49,227 nt of DNA from a virus, in IMG/VR virus record IMGVR_UViG_3300045988_084225, positions 1 through 49,227 of that record. The stretch is one strand, 5' to 3'. Both the position numbers and the translations under genes were made by a program. Position 1 is the stretch's first letter; every line of letters begins with the position of its first letter. Below, one piece after another: positions 1,938-46,612 of the stretch. Under the pieces are notes generated by a model. The model was not told the DNA's origin. It made no database searches and saw nothing but the letters and a program-made list of their open reading frames with translations.

Positions 1938-2720
1938 TTAATCTCCTGCCTTAATCGAATACACAACGCGATATAGTCGTATAACATCGTCTTTGGGGAT
2001 AGACTGATTCTCGAATACGCTATTTTCGTTAATGCACCTGCATTCGTAAAAATCTCCTCTATCGTAAACTCTTCTAAAGATAAAGCCTATACTATTCGTA
2101 TCAACGACCATTGCAGCTCCTTGAATAATATTAGCATTTAGTGGAAGATGCATGAGCGCAAGAATATCACCTTTATCGTAAGTAGGGAACATTGCATCTT
2201 GTCTAACCTGATAATAGAAGTCGAAATCATCGTATTGTGGGAATGCAAGAATGTGCTGCAGTCTTAACCCATCTTCCTTCACTATCTTATAGACATCTGT
2301 ATTAGGTCTTGATGCCAGTAACTTGTTAACTATCGGTCGCAGGATAACCGAATTAGCATTATCTTCAAAATTTGTTTCCTGCGTAGGTGGTGCTATGGTA
2401 ATGTTATTATTTCCACTCGCATTATCTCCGTATGAGTTATTGCTTGCTACAGTCGTAGTTCCTTGCGGTTGGGCAAGCATTTCGCCTTTGCCGTCTAATA
2501 ACCAAGATATATTAAAAATATTATCGAATGTTGTGTTTAAACGGAAAAAGAACCCATCTGTAAGGAATCCATCAATACCACGCATAGCATTAGATATATT
2601 CGGAGCTGATGTATTCATTCTATTCGCTAAATCCTTTTGTTTACTGATATATCCGTTATATCTAAGGTATTCAAAGACTTCTCGGAATCTATCTTTTCTT
2701 GTTGTTTTTTCTGTTGCCAT
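1938..2720 (-). CDS. CI-like repressor: N-terminal phage-CI HTH plus C-terminal S24 (LexA-like) fold with an apparently degenerate catalytic dyad
   Basis: 260 aa. The HTH region ends NISWLLDGKGEM. The C-terminal part has VRQDAMFPTYDKGDILAL and GFIFRRV, which align to the LexA GMSM and VKRL motifs. Confidence 0.75.
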   Translation of the reverse strand: MATEKTTRKDRFREVFEYLRYNGYISKQKDLANRMNTSAPNISNAMRGIDGFLTDGFFFRLNTTFDNIFNISWLLDGKGEMLAQPQGTTTVASNNSYGDNASGNNNITIAPPTQETNFEDNANSVILRPIVNKLLASRPNTDVYKIVKEDGLRLQHILAFPQYDDFDFYYQVRQDAMFPTYDKGDILALMHLPLNANIIQGAAMVVDTNSIGFIFRRVYDRGDFYECRCINENSVFENQSIPKDDVIRLYRVVYSIKAGD

Positions 2721-28618: not shown

Positions 28619-29025
28619 TGAATGGGATGCAAGCAGTAACGGAACTCGCTATATATCTTAGCAAGAATATAAGCGACATAGAAATATTCAAATTCAAGAA
28701 ACCAACGAACTATGCGCTTCCGTATATCTGTTTGAATTATCTACCAATCAATTACGGACAATGGGTTAACTCAACTGGGGTTGTGAACGTGAATATTCAT
28801 GTTCCCGACCTCGAAAGTGAGTTGCCAGACACGAAAAAGTTGCAAGAGATTGCGGAACGTGTTATGGAACTTATTCCGAAGCGCAATTCGACTACTGAGG
28901 ATGATGAAGCAGAACTTATAATCAATCATCATTGGTATTACCTTGAAGCCGATAGTAATTGCATTGGAGATAATGATAAAACGCACTTTATCAATCTTCG
29001 CATACAAGTAACATTCACAGACTAA
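28615..29025 (+). CDS. Tail terminator / tail-completion protein (putative)
   Basis: ATGA overlap with the upstream gene. Call is by position. Confidence 0.5.
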   Translation: MMNGMQAVTELAIYLSKNISDIEIFKFKKPTNYALPYICLNYLPINYGQWVNSTGVVNVNIHVPDLESELPDTKKLQEIAERVMELIPKRNSTTEDDEAELIINHHWYYLEADSNCIGDNDKTHFINLRIQVTFTD

Positions 29026-29039
29026 ATACAAATAAAATC

Positions 29040-29690
29040 ATGGCAAATAAAACTGGCGCATGGGGTATTGAGAGCATTAAGTTTGCACCCCTCGTTGATA
29101 AACCAAATGCAGCAGGCGGTACTTATAATTCAGAAACTTTGACCGCTAAGTCTGCTTTTCCTAAGGTATGGGAAAAGTTTAAACTGAAAGCAATCGTAAA
29201 GGACTCGCTTAGTTTCAACGACCAAGCCCCATCTACAAACAACATCGAAGTCGAAGATAGTGATAATTACTATGCCGTACTTCAGAGCGATGCAGGTTCT
29301 GAGGGCTTCACGGTACAGGTGTACGACATGAGCAAGGAAGCATATATGTTCTTCTTTGGCTTCAAGGAGGGCAAGGGAGATGACGAAGGCTATCTTGTCG
29401 AAGACCCGAATTTTAAGCTGCAAAATCATGCGGTTCAGATTCAAACCAAGGGTACTGACGAGTTTCCATCCCATATCTTTGAATGGGCAAATATGAAACT
29501 CGTTGTTACTAAGAGTGGTTCAATTGGCAAGAGTGGTTTCCCTAATATCAACATTGAATGCACAAAGCAAGCAGTCTTTGACGTGATAACGGGTGACGAA
29601 ATGCCTTCAGCACGCCACAAACCCAACGCAGGAACAACGGATAGCAATTCGGGACACGACCATGCGGCCACCGAAAGTAAGAAGGGCTAA
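29040..29690 (+). CDS. Major tail (tube) protein
   Basis: 216 aa. It lies immediately before the chaperone pair and tape measure, and a strong hairpin follows it. Confidence 0.65.
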   Translation: MANKTGAWGIESIKFAPLVDKPNAAGGTYNSETLTAKSAFPKVWEKFKLKAIVKDSLSFNDQAPSTNNIEVEDSDNYYAVLQSDAGSEGFTVQVYDMSKEAYMFFFGFKEGKGDDEGYLVEDPNFKLQNHAVQIQTKGTDEFPSHIFEWANMKLVVTKSGSIGKSGFPNINIECTKQAVFDVITGDEMPSARHKPNAGTTDSNSGHDHAATESKKG

Positions 29691-41679: not shown

Positions 41680-42153
41680 ATGAAAGCAGTAAGGATTGAA
41701 TCAGTTGCAGAATCAGAAAAAGCAAGTTTACTTACAATCTGTTTTGAAGGAGAGAGTATTAGTGAATTTGAAAAATTCATACAGAACCATAGTGAGAGTT
41801 ATAGCGAAGATTTGAACATTATCTTATCTGCTATTAGCAGAATGCTTGAAGCGAGTGGCTTTCTTGAACGCTATTTTAGGCCAGAAGGTAAATACAACGA
41901 TAGAGTTTGTGCTCTCCCTATAGAATCTGGCAAACTGAGATTATACTGCATTCGCTTGAATGATAGAATCTTGATTGTAGGTAATGGAGGTGTAAAAAAC
42001 GCACAAAAGTATCAAGATTGTGGCGATTTAAATGGATATGTTGTAACTTTGCAAAAGTTAGACAAGGCTCTTAAATTTGCGATTAAAAGAGGAGAAGTCA
42101 CAATCGAAGAACGAAAATTTATGAATCCAACCAACAAAAAATTCAACTTATGA
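41680..42153 (+). CDS. RelE/HigB-superfamily (Gp49-like) toxin candidate
   Basis: 157 aa. KLRLYCIRLNDRILIVGNGGVK. ATGA overlap with the downstream HTH gene. Confidence 0.5.
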   Translation: MKAVRIESVAESEKASLLTICFEGESISEFEKFIQNHSESYSEDLNIILSAISRMLEASGFLERYFRPEGKYNDRVCALPIESGKLRLYCIRLNDRILIVGNGGVKNAQKYQDCGDLNGYVVTLQKLDKALKFAIKRGEVTIEERKFMNPTNKKFNL

Positions 42154-42413
42154 AAGCTCAGAAGTTCTTTATGGATGCTGTTAATCGGATTCCAGACAAT
42201 ATCAATAGGCAAGTATGTCTATCAATGTCTGTATCTGATAAGATAGCAGACATTTTGAAGGGAAGAGGGATGACGCAGAAGGAATTCGCAAAAGGCATAG
42301 GGCGTTCTGAAGCTGAGGTTTCAAGATGGCTCAGCGGAACACACAACTTTACCTTGTCTACTATTGCAAAGATTTCTTCCTATCTTAAAGAGGATATTAT
42401 CCAAATTTCTTAA
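42150..42413 (+). CDS. XRE-family HTH antitoxin candidate (HigA-like)
   Basis: MTQKEFAKGIGRSEAEVSRWLSGTHNFTLSTIAKIS. Confidence 0.65.
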   Translation: MKAQKFFMDAVNRIPDNINRQVCLSMSVSDKIADILKGRGMTQKEFAKGIGRSEAEVSRWLSGTHNFTLSTIAKISSYLKEDIIQIS

Positions 42414-42429
42414 AAGGACTTTAGTTTAT

Positions 42430-42457
42430 AAAGCATCTCTTGCGAGATGCTTTTTTT
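42430..42457 (+). terminator. Intrinsic terminator
   Basis: GCATCTC (42433..42439) pairs with GAGATGC (42444..42450), followed by TTTTTTT. Confidence 0.75.
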
Positions 42458-42566
42458 ATTTCTGGTATGTCGGTTGCACGTATCCTGTGGGAGTATGTTG
42501 AAGGCTTAATCTATTTGGCTGACGAAAATAATCAGTGAAAATATTGCATAAAACGCACGTTTTTCA

Positions 42567-42574
42567 TATATTTG
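42567..42574 (+). promoter_or_regulatory. -7 box TATATTTG upstream of the XRE-ImmA gene
   Basis: TAnnTTTG match 16 nt upstream of the ATG at 42591. Confidence 0.45.
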
Positions 42575-42590
42575 CAGAAAATAATCAGCA

Positions 42591-43778
42591 ATGGAAGACA
42601 TACAATACAAAAGAAATATGATGGGAGTATTCGAATCTCCTATCAAGTGTGATATTGGTGAACTATCAATTAAAGAGCTATTTTCGCAGAAGATGGATAA
42701 CACGAGATTATCTAAAACAAAAATAGCTGATTTACTACGCATGGACGTAGCAACGCTGAACAAGATTGTTGACGGCAATTATTCTGGTGCAAGCGTTTTC
42801 AATGTTCTAAAGGTAGCAATGTTCTTGGGCATTTCTATGGATGAATTTCTTCGCGCGAATGCGGATATAATCAGCAAGGAAGAAGTAAAGGATATATGCG
42901 ACATTCGAGATGTTTCTCTTCTGTGTGAATACTTCGATATAAAGACTTTGAGGGATTTAGGATTTTTCTCTGACAATAACTATGCAGAAAGAATAAAGCA
43001 TTTCTTTGGATTGGGTAGACTACAAGAATATGTAAGCAATGTAGCAAAGCTATCAACTGCTTATAGCACAACGAAGAATAGCTATGATGTGAAGATGCGC
43101 AATTTCTGGACGACTTCTGCTTATATGCAATTTGAAAAGATTGCGAATCCTCATGTGTACAATAGGAAACGACTTTTAGAATTACTTCCTAATATTCGCC
43201 CATACACGAAGAATGTAGAAAAGGGACTGATTAGTATTATACGTGCATTGTATGCGATAGGTGTCACTATCATATATCAGCCGTCAATCCCGAAGATGCA
43301 AGTCCGTGGCGCAACAATGGAATATAACGGAAAACCTTGCGTAGTAATATCTGATTTAAACAAGAGATACCCGACATTATGGTTTTCGCTTTTTCATGAA
43401 TTATACCATGTGCTTTTTGATTTCGATAATATCAAATTCAACAAGTATCATATCAGTTCATCTGATGGTGATTTGCTGTTAACAGATGAAGATGCAGCTG
43501 ATTGTTTTGCTAGAGATTTTATTCTTTCTCCTACAAAGGTGCGATTTATAAAAACCTATATCAATGCTCCAACAATCGTAGAACGCTACGCAAAAGAATG
43601 GGGAATACATAGTTCTCTCATATATGCGATTGCAGCATTTGATGATGGTAAATGGGCTGCTTATAATAAGTTTATCCCAAAGTCAGATAAAGCGACAGGA
43701 GTAATCAACACGAATGTATTTCAATGTGATTCAATAGAACAATCAAGTAAAATGTATAAACAAAAAATAGAGTTATGA
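42591..43778 (+). CDS. XRE HTH fused to an ImmA/IrrE-family zinc metallopeptidase
   Basis: 395 aa. The N-terminal HTH includes LSKTKIADLLRMDVATLNKIVDG. HExxH motif in FHELYHVLFD. Confidence 0.75.
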   Translation: MEDIQYKRNMMGVFESPIKCDIGELSIKELFSQKMDNTRLSKTKIADLLRMDVATLNKIVDGNYSGASVFNVLKVAMFLGISMDEFLRANADIISKEEVKDICDIRDVSLLCEYFDIKTLRDLGFFSDNNYAERIKHFFGLGRLQEYVSNVAKLSTAYSTTKNSYDVKMRNFWTTSAYMQFEKIANPHVYNRKRLLELLPNIRPYTKNVEKGLISIIRALYAIGVTIIYQPSIPKMQVRGATMEYNGKPCVVISDLNKRYPTLWFSLFHELYHVLFDFDNIKFNKYHISSSDGDLLLTDEDAADCFARDFILSPTKVRFIKTYINAPTIVERYAKEWGIHSSLIYAIAAFDDGKWAAYNKFIPKSDKATGVINTNVFQCDSIEQSSKMYKQKIEL

Positions 43779-44233
43779 CAACTAACGAGAAATTAAGGAA
43801 AAAGAAAGACTTGGAAATTCAAGAACTTTTGCATAATGCAGACCAATCTAGAACAGATGGCATTCTGATTGATGAGCAAGAAGATTCTATCTTGATAAAA
43901 GATGAAATTAAAGATTTGCTTGATACGCAAATTGATGACCCTGCAATGAAGTACGATTCATATTACAAGTGCATTGAAGCTATCTTTCGTGAATATATCC
44001 CTAAAGGAGAAGGTGGCGAATTGATACGTGAAGAAAAATGCACATTTCTTACTGGGCATCGAAAAGATAGCAATGGCATACGTGGTGCAGATAGTCGTCA
44101 ATCAACCCTCGCTGATATGAGTGAATTACTTGTTATCTTGCATGATTGGATTGATAGAGGGGCTAATCCTTTTGACTTATATACAACACTTTTGGAAGAG
44201 AATAAGAAAAGAGGGTATGGTGAACCAACATAG
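43775..44233 (+). CDS. Hypothetical acidic protein translationally coupled to the ImmA-like gene
   Basis: 152 aa. ATGA overlap with the upstream gene. Confidence 0.6.
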   Translation: MTTNEKLRKKKDLEIQELLHNADQSRTDGILIDEQEDSILIKDEIKDLLDTQIDDPAMKYDSYYKCIEAIFREYIPKGEGGELIREEKCTFLTGHRKDSNGIRGADSRQSTLADMSELLVILHDWIDRGANPFDLYTTLLEENKKRGYGEPT

Positions 44234-44242
44234 ACAATAGCA

Positions 44243-44268
44243 AAAGCAGCTCGCAAGGGCTGCTTTTA
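44243..44268 (+). terminator. Intrinsic terminator (plus strand)
   Basis: AGCAGC (44245..44250) pairs with GCTGCT (44259..44264), followed by TTT. Confidence 0.65.
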
Positions 44269-44275
44269 TTATGTC

Positions 44276-44304
44276 TAAAAAAGCGAGGGGCACTGCCCCT
44301 CGCT
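44276..44304 (-). terminator. Intrinsic terminator (minus strand)
   Basis: AGCGAGGGGC (44282..44291) pairs with GCCCCTCGCT (44295..44304). A T-run follows on the minus strand. Confidence 0.75.
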
Positions 44305-44313
44305 ATTGGTATG

Positions 44314-44625
44314 TTATATTGTTTTTAACGGTTTATAATGTTGTATGTATTCTTTGAATCTTTCCGCTTGGCTCTTGAGTATATTCCCAAATGAGAGGTT
44401 TGCTCTTAGCTCCTCTAGCCCATATTCGTCAATATACCTACCTACGCAAGGATTGAGCATAAGAGACGGAATGGCTTCTACACCACTCATGTCTAATTTT
44501 ACGCTTTCCCCGTGATTCCTTTTATCAATCATGATACAATATAACTCCTCCCCAGCTTTGCGGTAGTCCCTTGTGCGAGACATAATGTCGGATACTTTAA
44601 TTGTACACATAGTTTTAAAATTCAA
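44314..44625 (-). CDS. STAS-like (DUF4325-type) protein
   Basis: 103 aa. SVKLDMSGVEAIPSLMLNPCVGRYIDEYG. It overlaps the upstream ATPase gene by 11 nt. Confidence 0.55.
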   Translation of the reverse strand: MNFKTMCTIKVSDIMSRTRDYRKAGEELYCIMIDKRNHGESVKLDMSGVEAIPSLMLNPCVGRYIDEYGLEELRANLSFGNILKSQAERFKEYIQHYKPLKTI

Positions 44626-45466
44626 AATCGGTTAATACATCTTCTTCTTCAAGATTGGGAACATCAATGTCGAAATCTATGAGAGTTCCTCTGAATTCGA
44701 AATCAAGTGGGAATGTTTGTTGTTTGCCATCAATTTTTATCAAATATGCACTCTTGCTAAACACTCTAACGTTGTCTGAGTTAGTCAGAATGTTGTCAAG
44801 TCCGAACCCTCGATTATTTTTCTGAGATTGTGTAGTGAAGTTTTTTCTCATAGAAATTTCAAGAGCCTCTGTATCTGTTATTTTCTTGCCAAGAAATGCA
44901 CAAACTGAATTTGGTATAGATATTCCAAAATCACAAATTGCAACATTTATCTTTTTAAATCTATCGTTGTATGCGATAACGCTGAAAGCATTCCCTTTCG
45001 CATTCGCGTGGTCAAAGACATTATTGTATGCTTCAGCGAGTGTCGTTGATATCGGTGTGAAGTCTTTATTGCCTTTGATTATGTTCTTGAAATAATTTGT
45101 CACTTCGCTTGCAAATATATCCTTTTCGCCATCTATGATTTTCCACAAGCTAAAAATATTATCAGCTTTACTTTTAGCGTGTTGCATTCCTAACTTCCAA
45201 TATGATAGAAATCCACAATCTTCACATATATAATTGCAAACATTGCAATTATTTCGAGAAATGCTAACAGAGTATTCTTTATCAATCAGAAATTGTATCA
45301 AGCACGCGAGCGATGTAAGATGGAATGGCTTCAATTCACTTTCGGCAATGCATTCATCGAAATCCAATAGAATATCATTGTCTTCTGATTCGCATTGATT
45401 AACAATGGATGCAATCTTTTGCACCCACTTAATCTTGTTCGCAGTTTCAAATAATATTCTTTCCAT
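44615..45466 (-). CDS. GHKL (histidine-kinase-like, Bergerat-fold) ATPase
   Basis: N-box EAYNNVFDHA, G1-like ICDFGISIP, G2 NNRGFGLDNI. Likely start is MERILFE at 45466. Confidence 0.65.
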   Translation of the reverse strand: MERILFETANKIKWVQKIASIVNQCESEDNDILLDFDECIAESELKPFHLTSLACLIQFLIDKEYSVSISRNNCNVCNYICEDCGFLSYWKLGMQHAKSKADNIFSLWKIIDGEKDIFASEVTNYFKNIIKGNKDFTPISTTLAEAYNNVFDHANAKGNAFSVIAYNDRFKKINVAICDFGISIPNSVCAFLGKKITDTEALEISMRKNFTTQSQKNNRGFGLDNILTNSDNVRVFSKSAYLIKIDGKQQTFPLDFEFRGTLIDFDIDVPNLEEEDVLTDFEF

Positions 45467-45470
45467 GCTG

Positions 45471-45478
45471 CAAAGATA
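45471..45478 (-). promoter_or_regulatory. -7 box TATCTTTG only 4 nt upstream of the ATPase ATG (a leaderless transcript is possible)
   Basis: The reverse complement reads TATCTTTGCAGCATGG. Confidence 0.4.
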
Positions 45479-45520
45479 CAATCTAAATCAACATCAGTCA
45501 ACAATCAACCACATTTTAAC

Positions 45521-45549
45521 AAAAAAACGAGCATTGAAACCAATGCTCG
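45521..45549 (-). terminator. Strong intrinsic terminator on the minus strand, upstream of the ATPase gene
   Basis: CGAGCATTG (45528..45536) pairs with CAATGCTCG (45541..45549). On the minus strand T7 follows. Confidence 0.75.
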
Positions 45550-45626
45550 CCCGTCCCAAAAGGTTCGATTAATATCTACGATAGTAGAAATTTTATTTGT
45601 ATTTCAATTCCAGCTTTAGGACGTTG

Positions 45627-45634
45627 CAAAGATA
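45627..45634 (-). promoter_or_regulatory. -7 box TATCTTTG (TATCTTTGCAACG) about 80 nt upstream of the terminator
   Basis: It has the same core as the cassette promoters. It would give a ~100-nt terminated RNA or a conditional leader. Confidence 0.5.
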
Positions 45635-45775
45635 GAAATTACGTTTCACCCTACCAAATTTTTCACAAGGGAAAAACAATCAACTTACAAAAGTAACAAA
45701 TAACTTACAAGTAGCTTCTTCTCACCTTTGCGGTATCGGGAAATAGTTCCCGACTAACTAAAAAACACTACTATT

Positions 45776-46612
45776 ATGAGTGAAGTTGAAAAAGTAATCT
45801 GTTGCGACAGAGGTAATGATGCGCTTGCTTATGCGGCAATGGCGAACAACAAGGGCAATGACCCCATGGCCTTGGCTGCAATGATGAATGGTGGCCTTGG
45901 AGGTGCAAACCAATGGCTTAACAATCCGTTTTTGTATCTTATTTTTCTTGCCATGTTCGGTGGCAATGGCTTCGGCTTCGGCAACAACCGCAATGGTCTG
46001 CAAGATGCCGAGATACAGGGTCAAATTCAGTCGTTGCGCTCACAGATGGCCGACAACCACAACTCCGACTTGCTGATGCAGGCAATCAAGGGCAATAACG
46101 ATGCGTTGACCACGTTGGGCGCAAACCTTAATTGCGACTTCAACCAGTTGCAGCAGGGCGTGTGTGCAGTTCGCTCCGCTATTGACAATGTAAGCGGACA
46201 GGTAGGATTTTCGGCAGAGCGCGTAATCAACGCAGCGGAGAGAGGTAATGCAGCTGTAATTCAAGCAATACAAAATTGCTGCTGCAACACGCAGAACAAC
46301 ATCACCAAGATGGGCTATGAGAATCAGCTCGCAATACAAGGACAGACCAACTCCTTGCAGCAGAGCCTCAATTTTGTAAACTCATCGGTGGAGCGCGGAT
46401 TTAGCTCGGTTGGCTATCAGATGTCGCAGGACAAGTGCGATGTTATACGCGCAGGTCAGGACAACACACAGCGTATAATTGATGCCTTGAACAACCATTG
46501 GTATGCTGACATTGACCGCAAGTATCAAGATGCACGTTTGGAATTGTCACAACAAAGCCAGACAGCAGCCTTGATTGCAGCACTTGGTAAGACCACAACT
46601 GCGACAACTTGA
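45776..46612 (+). CDS. Q/N-rich protein with one hydrophobic Gly-rich segment and a CCC motif; unknown function
   Basis: 278 aa. NPFLYLIFLAMFGGNGFGFGNN and IQNCCCNTQNN. It has its own upstream region and terminator. Confidence 0.7.
   Translation: MSEVEKVICCDRGNDALAYAAMANNKGNDPMALAAMMNGGLGGANQWLNNPFLYLIFLAMFGGNGFGFGNNRNGLQDAEIQGQIQSLRSQMADNHNSDLLMQAIKGNNDALTTLGANLNCDFNQLQQGVCAVRSAIDNVSGQVGFSAERVINAAERGNAAVIQAIQNCCCNTQNNITKMGYENQLAIQGQTNSLQQSLNFVNSSVERGFSSVGYQMSQDKCDVIRAGQDNTQRIIDALNNHWYADIDRKYQDARLELSQQSQTAALIAALGKTTTATT

Follow-up and report, generated by a model that had tools for sequence, protein, structure and literature searches.

A phage-borne GHKL kinase-like protein and its STAS-domain partner form an exchangeable two-gene cargo of temperate Bacteroidales phages

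The K-S pair and its closest described relatives

Work published in 2026 on the CapK/CapS and VapKSC systems has described how a GHKL kinase and its STAS-domain substrate couple the sensing of single-stranded DNA (ssDNA) to a repressor or a PIN toxin. CapK is an ssDNA-activated kinase of helix-turn-helix (HTH)-STAS-GHKL architecture that phosphorylates a conserved serine of CapS, a repressor composed of a STAS and a winged helix-turn-helix (wHTH) domain, and the two proteins regulate CBASS, Bub and Thoeris operons (Chambers et al., EMBO J 2026, PMC13373217). VapK, of STAS-GHKL layout, has been suggested to phosphorylate VapS, which is made up of a STAS domain plus a brief C-terminal stretch, and in this way to release the PIN toxin VapC; mutants of VapS (the phosphomimetic S48E as well as S48A) and VapK (F54A) support this phosphorylation without showing it directly, the VapS-VapC structure is available as PDB 9z7o, and the operon protects against one phage (PMC13373217). 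A subgroup of VapC genes coupled to DUF4325 genes had already appeared in an earlier survey (PMC5499597). Here, we analyzed two adjoining genes, called K and S in the following, in the IMG/VR virus record IMGVR_UViG_3300045988_084225 (positions 1 to 49,227; this whole stretch of 49,227 nt is referred to as the window) and found that the same core of sensor and substrate also travels alone, with no recognizable output, as a swappable moron of temperate Bacteroidales phages. Similar pairs are carried by Streptococcus and Burkholderia phages, and chromosomal copies are present in many Bacteroidota. The pair is hence not categorically new but an effector-less, phage-borne variant of the kinase-STAS switch described in 2026.

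Both genes lie on the minus strand. K (44615..45466; ATG at 45466, stop codon at 44615-44617) encodes 283 amino acids beginning with MERILFE and comprises an N-terminal alpha/beta domain of ca. 95 residues that is putatively STAS-like and that a linker joins to a SpoIIAB-like GHKL kinase domain at the C-terminus. S (44314..44610; ATG at 44610, stop codon at 44314-44316) encodes a STAS-like protein of 98 amino acids with a single domain that scores DUF4325 above the Pfam gathering score (E 8.5e-7). The original prediction, which had been made from the sequence alone, described a 283-residue protein with Bergerat-fold motifs that overlaps a DUF4325-like protein of 103 residues in a phage accessory arm. 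We indeed found the larger protein with its motifs, and the pair lies beyond the lysis genes of a temperate phage. The DUF4325 assignment of the smaller protein likewise holds, but its size and the overlap do not. A 103-codon open reading frame starting at TTG and overlapping K exists mechanically, though it probably does not represent the real start; S homologues share the N-terminus MCTI(K/V)L..I(L/M), and most gene calls also start there. For these reasons, we place the start of S at the ATG at 44610, 4 nt past the stop codon of K, so that the two genes abut without overlapping.

The N box of the Bergerat fold in K (E145-A154, EAYNNVFDHA; 45005..45034, minus strand) includes the Mg/ATP-binding Asn149, and is followed by the G1 box (D179-F-G181-I-S-I; 44915..44932, minus strand) and the G2 box or ATP lid (N218-R-G220-F-G222-L223; 44798..44815, minus strand). 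Across 26 homologues with 29-93% identity, E145, N149, D152, H153 and A154 of the N box, G181 of the G1 box and N218, G220, G222 and L223 of the G2 box are invariant, while D179 and F180 are kept in at least 90%. The asparagine of CapK that is equivalent to N149 is needed for its activity (PMC13373217).

Pfam reports for K only a weak match to HATPase_c_2 (E 0.12) and neither HisKA nor DHp, in agreement with the earlier remark that K has no dimerization or phosphoacceptor region of histidine kinases. The NCBIfam model of anti-sigma F (spIIAB) is matched weakly (E 0.0046, 16.9 bits compared to a cutoff of 135), PHROG 3364, a family of unknown function, is matched at E 1.5e-26, and a direct search of PDB sequences with K as a single sequence and as a profile gave no meaningful match. 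In structure comparisons using Foldseek, the AlphaFold2 model of K (predicted local distance difference test, pLDDT, 82.7; predicted template modeling score 0.85) found its best PDB match in SpoIIAB (1l0o_A, E 5e-5, template modeling (TM) score 0.70 when normalized on SpoIIAB; also 1til and 1tid). SpoIIAB is matched over its whole chain, whereas the matches of K to Hsp90/TRAP1 cover only the nucleotide-binding subdomain, and the model stops directly after the Bergerat fold, with no transducer and no DHp or helical-hairpin dimerization domain. We therefore discarded K as an ATPase of the MORC/Hsp90/MutL type, given the missing transducer domain and the fact that SpoIIAB alone is matched over the whole chain, and as a two-component histidine kinase, given that HisKA is not matched and that the model has no DHp. 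Instead, we consider K to be a SpoIIAB-like protein with an extra N-terminal domain and a predicted kinase function.

The N-terminal domain (residues 1-95) is modeled as a beta-alpha-beta-alpha-beta-alpha unit with a topology that fits STAS. When modeled in isolation (pLDDT 79), its Foldseek matches all stayed below significance, and STAS domains of SLC26 cluster with RsbS and an anti-sigma antagonist within the first 35 (TM scores of 0.4-0.48); its hhalign comparison to the S family gave E 0.37 and does not demonstrate a duplication of S. Homologues of K do score as STAS, clearly and at the same position in case of the K protein of a Burkholderia phage (Pfam STAS, E 1.5e-7) and weakly, as STAS_2, in case of loci L075 and L078. 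Altogether, the K family comprises 4404 clusters at a cutoff of E <= 1e-3, of which 925 remain at 1e-10 and 181 at 1e-30. At the other end of the protein, residues 271-283 (44618..44656, minus strand) form an acidic tail ending in ..LEEEDVLTDFEF-COOH with a terminal aromatic residue. This tail (EEEDVLTDFEF, with terminal Phe) is kept across the Bacteroidota family and has low pLDDT in the model, and VapK-type kinases end in ..DE(L/W/P)FF (e.g., ..DELFF or ..EEWFF). It resembles the C-terminal tail of bacterial ssDNA-binding protein (SSB) and could serve as an autoinhibitory DNA mimic or as a docking peptide.

The original prediction had placed the pair in no named defense system. PADLOC indeed has no model for it, but sequence matches lead to CapK/CapS and VapKSC as its closest described relatives. 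The most distant loci that we collected, L070-L078 from Chloroflexota and Verrucomicrobiota, are genuine VapKSC operons in which S has ca. 120 amino acids, matches the VapS structure in the PDB at E 5e-19 and is followed by a tightly coupled gene of ca. 205 codons, with matches to PIN in two of the three that were scanned in Pfam. Aligned to the kinases of these loci (together with two phage homologues) using hhalign, the K family matches with a probability of 99.8% and E 1.3e-28 over residues 18-283 and 262 columns, which includes the shared acidic C-terminal tail. For S, the sole PDB match of the single sequence is Escherichia VapS (9z7o_A, E 0.22), and the same chain is the only significant match (E 1.1e-10) of a profile built exclusively from Bacteroidales S proteins of the two-gene type. 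Ser49 of S (codon 44464..44466, minus strand), the predicted phospho-acceptor, aligns with Ser48 of VapS (chain residue 66 of 9z7o_A), and this column holds serine (54) or threonine (12) throughout the 66 non-redundant S proteins, among which are those from true VapKSC operons.

K thus probably shares with VapK the layout of an N-terminal domain, putatively STAS-like, and a GHKL domain with no HTH over ca. 260 aligned residues, S is a DUF4325 STAS protein with VapS as its sole solved relative and with the acceptor serine or threonine kept, and the genes follow each other in the same order and tight coupling. Unlike VapKSC, however, the pair is without a VapC or PIN gene, be it within the cassette, elsewhere in the window or at 53 related loci, K is only ca. 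20-30% identical to VapK-type kinases, and the copy studied here is phage-borne. S is also shorter than VapS (98 compared to 116 residues) and lacks VapS residues 94-116, which insert near the active site of VapC and inhibit it; the profile match between the two proteins accordingly ends at chain residue 95 of 134, and the distal helix of S is unlike that of VapS-type proteins. With CapK/CapS, the pair has in common a GHKL kinase-like protein with a putative STAS domain and a STAS protein with a conserved serine, i.e., the same logic of kinase and substrate, but at 283 and 98 residues K lacks the N-terminal HTH and S the winged-helix domain, and behind the pair the window has a terminator and convergent genes rather than an immune operon. 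Without wHTH domain and downstream immune operon, a CapS-type repressor function of S is excluded, though some distant homologues of the pair do precede TIR or NTPase genes. A resemblance to SpoIIAB/SpoIIAA had been pointed out from the beginning and is borne out, also with regard to RsbW/RsbV, by the superposition of the C-terminal domain of K on SpoIIAB, its top Foldseek match, and by the single STAS domain of S, in which the second helix begins at the serine. The pair differs from these systems by the extra N-terminal domain of K (ca. 95-130 residues), by the lack of a linked sigma factor or PP2C phosphatase and by its low NCBIfam score. Judged by these alignments, K and S very likely belong to the wider CapK/VapK-CapS/VapS superfamily.

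Gene neighborhoods and possible outputs of the pair

A pattern scan of GTDB representative genomes for K retrieved 67 loci, 55 of them from Bacteroidota (53 non-redundant). S lies directly downstream of K at 62 loci and adjoins it at 65 when loci L066 and L068, with a gap of ca. 300 nt, and L047 (5660-6813), with S just upstream of K in reversed order, are included; of the remaining two, L024 ends at a contig end and no S was found at L052. In metagenomic contexts of K, S was present behind it in every one. The co-conservation that had been suggested as a check of the pair is thus evident. At one Bacteroidales genome locus, a second, divergent K-S-like pair lies ca. 3 kb downstream of the first (L031, 9887-11118).

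A recurrent third gene, by contrast, is missing: across the 53 non-redundant Bacteroidota loci, the largest neighbor cluster spans three loci, and the 126 nearest neighbors at 37 loci fall into 177 Pfam families. They are a mixture of housekeeping genes (encoding serine hydroxymethyltransferase, ribosomal protein L17 or transporters) with some type I methylases, RhuM, NERD, integrase and phage genes, and upon inspection of the translations some genes immediately downstream resemble UvrB, Ile-tRNA synthetase or SAICAR synthase. Genes for sigma factors or PP2C phosphatases are not linked to the pair; Sigma70_r2 was found in two of the 126 neighbors. A hidden Markov model (HMM) built from the PIN genes of VapKSC loci had no match in the window, whichever frame was read, up to E 10, and the clustering of neighbors and their Pfam and PADLOC annotation were equally negative with regard to an effector. 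Fusions of S to an effector domain are absent from its best 120 homologues listed, which are all single-domain proteins of 87-115 (mostly 94-103) amino acids and include common Burkholderia and Bacillus proteins. Downstream of S in the window, the strong terminator and the convergent genes leave nothing further on the same strand.

PADLOC-DB v2 contains no model for the pair and gave no match for S; for K, it reported the N-terminal part of DrmA only (E 1.8e-4, 16.7 bits), and we rejected membership in DISARM on this basis because this is a domain-level match to the GHKL fold. The PADLOC and defense-island checks proposed along with the original prediction gave a divided picture, with some homologues among TIR, HipA and NTPase genes but no PADLOC model and mixed neighborhoods. 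We conclude that the pair is a self-contained two-gene variant and not a degraded VapKSC operon.

Based on these findings, we favor, with a probability of roughly 60%, that K and S form a phospho-switch of the CapK/CapS-VapK/VapS type that is self-contained in two genes, with a target that is either encoded in trans or intrinsic to the pair. K would act as a serine kinase similar to SpoIIAB that senses through its N-terminal, STAS-like domain, and S would be its dedicated single-domain STAS substrate, which activated K would phosphorylate at Ser49. The analogy with CapK and VapK suggests ssDNA, which builds up upon DNA damage or while a phage replicates, as a possible activator, and phosphorylation would alter binding by S or by a complex of both proteins. 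Since the cassette carries no toxin, DNA-binding domain, sigma factor or phosphatase, we infer that the controlled partner would be encoded in trans, by the host or another phage, or that the K-S complex would be the effector itself; the switch would probably be one-way given that no dedicated phosphatase is linked. The pair would be transcribed from its own promoter, P2 (see below), as a leaderless or nearly leaderless bicistronic mRNA that ends at a strong terminator, a pattern that would fit a prophage accessory gene for superinfection defense or stress sensing, and a role in defense is plausible.

Several points weigh against this interpretation. Its central step, i.e., what the switch controls, is missing, because no output partner was identified and S lacks the region by which VapS inhibits VapC. 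The predicted kinase activity, the assignment of Ser49 as its target and the proposed ssDNA trigger depend on homology at 20-30% identity, and the N-terminal domain of K on its own cannot be proven to be a STAS domain from its hhalign and Foldseek results. The linkage to defense islands is modest as well, with many chromosomal copies beside housekeeping genes and no PADLOC model. No single model of the output has more than a low probability, and this includes the proposal that effector-less K-S pairs are widespread, cross-phylum prophage cargo that would sense ssDNA, produced by DNA damage or by a superinfecting phage, and would have a conserved target, cellular or viral, elsewhere or act as a complex.

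A doubtful alternative is that K and S constitute a two-gene toxin-antitoxin (TA) or abortive infection pair in which free K, for instance by phosphorylating or sequestering an essential host protein, or free S would be toxic and restrained by the other, so that infection would arrest the cell with no partner in trans. Like TA modules, the cassette is self-contained and crosses phyla, the same slot holds a Panacea-domain TA pair in sister phages, and homologues lie beside HipA and TIR genes. Kinases of the SpoIIAB class are known to be specific for their STAS partners and not promiscuous, however, and while the related VapKSC is itself a TA system (PMC13373217), its toxin is the PIN protein that is absent from the present cassette. 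Even less probable, and in fact improbable, is a role in phage counter-defense against host systems of the same family, with the pair serving, e.g., as a sink for the ssDNA signal or supplying a surrogate STAS antitoxin, or in feeding DNA damage into the lysis-lysogeny decision. Phages of several phyla carry the pair, in some prophages it lies beside the repressor and integrase, and the family has been reported to sense DNA damage (PMC13373217), but most of the family members that we found are chromosomal and outside recognizable prophages, the cassette is independent of ImmA and repressor modules, and the K-pattern scan retrieved no VapKSC operon among Bacteroidota loci. The most improbable of these alternatives, finally, is partner switching on a sigma factor, with K as an anti-sigma factor that holds a sigma factor of the host and S as anti-anti-sigma factor, a pair by which the prophage would rewire host transcription. 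Such a function would agree with SpoIIAB as best structural match, with the weak NCBIfam match to anti-sigma F and with a STAS partner that has a conserved serine. It is difficult to reconcile with the sequence of K, which is far closer to VapK (E 1e-28) than to SpoIIAB (16.9 bits compared to a cutoff of 135), with an N-terminal domain that SpoIIAB and RsbW do not have, and with the rarity of Sigma70_r2, the lack of linked sigma factors or PP2C phosphatases and the absence of any recurring neighbor family.

If a phospho-switch of K and S is active, its target must lie in trans or within the pair. This would make the sensor family more modular than is known so far and would hint at a response to DNA damage or superinfection that prophages of gut Bacteroidales encode and that has escaped recognition. 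If it indeed operates with no dedicated effector, it would represent a new mode of output for the CapK/VapK family and could form a phage immunity or decision circuit independent of the RecA/LexA type of repressor cleavage. The pair is also a compact two-gene system for studying kinase activation.

An accessory slot with exchangeable cargo

The window represents a temperate phage of the Bacteroidales host group with an integrase (217-1458), an S24 repressor (1938-2720, minus strand), a holin (39674) and a GH108 lysin (40255), and the pair is an exchangeable moron of this phage. In two IMG/VR contigs with the same backbone, L079 (1-1520) and L080 (9900-11430), the same flanks enclose a different cargo composed of a SocA_Panacea antitoxin gene (E 2e-17) followed by a gene for a 134-residue protein. 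In the window, the slot (44276-45660, minus strand) has a distal promoter-like sequence P1, an RNA-like unit of ca. 100 nt with a terminator and the proximal promoter P2 on one side as well as the downstream terminator on the other, and one cargo junction immediately follows TATCTTTGCAGC while the other immediately precedes the terminator ATAGCGAG..GGCAGTGCCCCTCGC. Because the same frame flanks unrelated cargo, its promoters and terminators are features of the phage slot. The details of promoters and terminators are therefore ordinary slot architecture, yet they define the site of cargo exchange. The downstream element is an intrinsic terminator recognized by a terminator scan (44276..44304, minus strand) with a stem of 10 bp (44304..44282), of which eight are G-C pairs, followed by T6. 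Convergent terminators stand back to back (44242-44304) between the K-S unit and a plus-strand gene that ends at 44233. With its own promoter and terminator, its site behind the lysis cassette, the swap against a Panacea TA pair and the recurrence of the same cargo across backbones, the locus resembles slots of phage morons, such as those for TA and exclusion genes that prophages carry behind their lysis genes; this likeness differs from those discussed above in that it tells the vehicle and not the function.

K with 100% identity is found in at least four phage backbones that have either GH108 or Amidase_2 lysins and may carry or lack ImmA and HTH modules. In the window, the region next to the pair includes an HTH-containing gene pair (41680-42413, encoding 157 amino acids and an 87-residue HTH protein) that matches the PADLOC candidate PDC-M64 and a 395-residue HTH+M78 protein similar to ImmA (42591-43778) that matches PD-Lambda-2_B, with a 152-residue partner beside it. 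Among phages with an identical K protein, the PDC-M64-like pair and the ImmA-like gene with its partner (41680-44233) come and go independently of K and S, so that separate accessory cassettes make up a mosaic here.

Beyond these close relatives, a further phage has a K copy of 67% identity at the same position, next to a HicA gene, and in a Bacteroidales prophage a more distant copy is flanked by the S24 repressor and the integrase. Other copies are found among TIR/ThsB, HipA and PNP-NTPase genes. Pairs of K and DUF4325 genes follow the lysin in prophages of Streptococcus agalactiae and S. dysgalactiae, and genes for a GHKL protein of ca. 300 residues and then a DUF4325 protein of ca. 98 residues are present in Streptococcus phage phiGBSVK-E1 (2234-3423) and, after the integrase, in Burkholderia phage vB_E188 (2045-3252), with positions behind the lysin or the integrase that are classic for morons and with the proteins of these two phages annotated merely as ATPase-like or hypothetical. 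Francisella phage KIRK encodes a 293-residue protein, putatively K-like, followed by a DUF4325 protein near the CI repressor (PMC7924643). A megablast comparison of the region to INPHARED phages gave no match.

Promoters, terminators and the unit of ca. 100 nt

The original prediction had read two -7 boxes and a 9-bp hairpin with T7 upstream of K, and all three are found. P2 consists of a -7 box TATCTTTG (45471..45478, minus strand) placed 4 nt before the ATG of K and a -33-like GTTG (45502..45499) at a spacer of 20 nt. P1 (45627..45658, minus strand) likewise has a 20-nt spacer between a -33 element TTTG (45658..45655) and a -7 box TATCTTTG (45634..45627). Between them lies the unit of ca. 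100 nt (45518..45622, minus strand), which is composed of a 5' closing stem and the terminator hairpin with a 9-bp stem (45549..45528) followed by T7 (45527..45521). The bare TAnnTTTG motif is only mildly enriched in the window, with 70 matches compared to 51 +/- 8 expected, so that the position of a -7 box alone is weak evidence for a promoter. P2 is supported by conservation, since its box is invariant in 12 close relatives with 93-100% identical K and reads TACCTTTGcaacATG in the 67%-identity relative. In Bacteroides promoters, a spacing like that of P2 makes transcription begin at the A of the ATG or at a base beside it, and P2 therefore probably gives rise to a leaderless or nearly leaderless K-S mRNA. 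This arrangement is confined to the phage clade (two of 56 loci), and we rejected it as a family-wide feature for this reason.

P1 is far less constant. Five of the 12 relatives with 93-100% identical K have lost it by two different deletions, which in L084, L088 and L090 removed P1 and retained the hairpin, while in L086 and L011 the 5' arm of the hairpin is gone together with P1. Among the nine copies that retain the segment, four have a mutated P1 -7 box, always at the fifth base (45630), which is changed from T to C in L081 and L085 and from T to A in L079 and L080. The remaining 90 nt around this base are 98-100% identical, and the P2 box never varies. This twofold independent change could reflect tuning, inactivation or chance.

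The idea that expression of the pair is gated by conditional readthrough from P1 past the terminator is not supported, given that P1 is deleted or mutated in relatives, that P2 is invariant and that the same frame also flanks unrelated cargo; readthrough is not needed for the expression of K and S, and the unit of ca. 100 nt is not obligatory for the module.

As an RNA, the unit is predicted to fold at -30.5 kcal/mol (z = -4.1), and its four near-identical variants show no compensatory covariation. An Rfam scan of 44000-46000 found nothing near the gathering score (BTnc060 at 18 bits compared to 229 is noise), and a search for antisense targets in the window returned only repeats of the promoter motif and one 15-mer in the same sense. 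The latter is an A-rich tract, AAATACAAATAAAAT, that the unit carries at 45572-45586 (minus strand) and that is identical to 29024-29038 (plus strand) in the leader before the ATG of a structural gene at 29040. This match suggests that the tract may be the leftover 5' untranslated region of a lost gene, and the unit as a whole could be a small RNA or the remnant of a decayed cassette, both of which fit equally well.

Further upstream, the intergenic region between K and a divergent gene for a 278-residue protein (45776, plus strand) contains direct repeats TTGTAAGTT spaced 20 nt apart (45682-45710). They are conserved in all close relatives as well as recognizable in L009, the 67%-identity relative, and may represent an operator. 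In addition, the 5' region of the divergent gene includes a 7-bp hairpin (45736-45753, TCGGGAA-CTAT-TTCCCGA) that is kept in L009 by a compensatory exchange of A-T for G-C (TCGGGGA..TCCCCGA).

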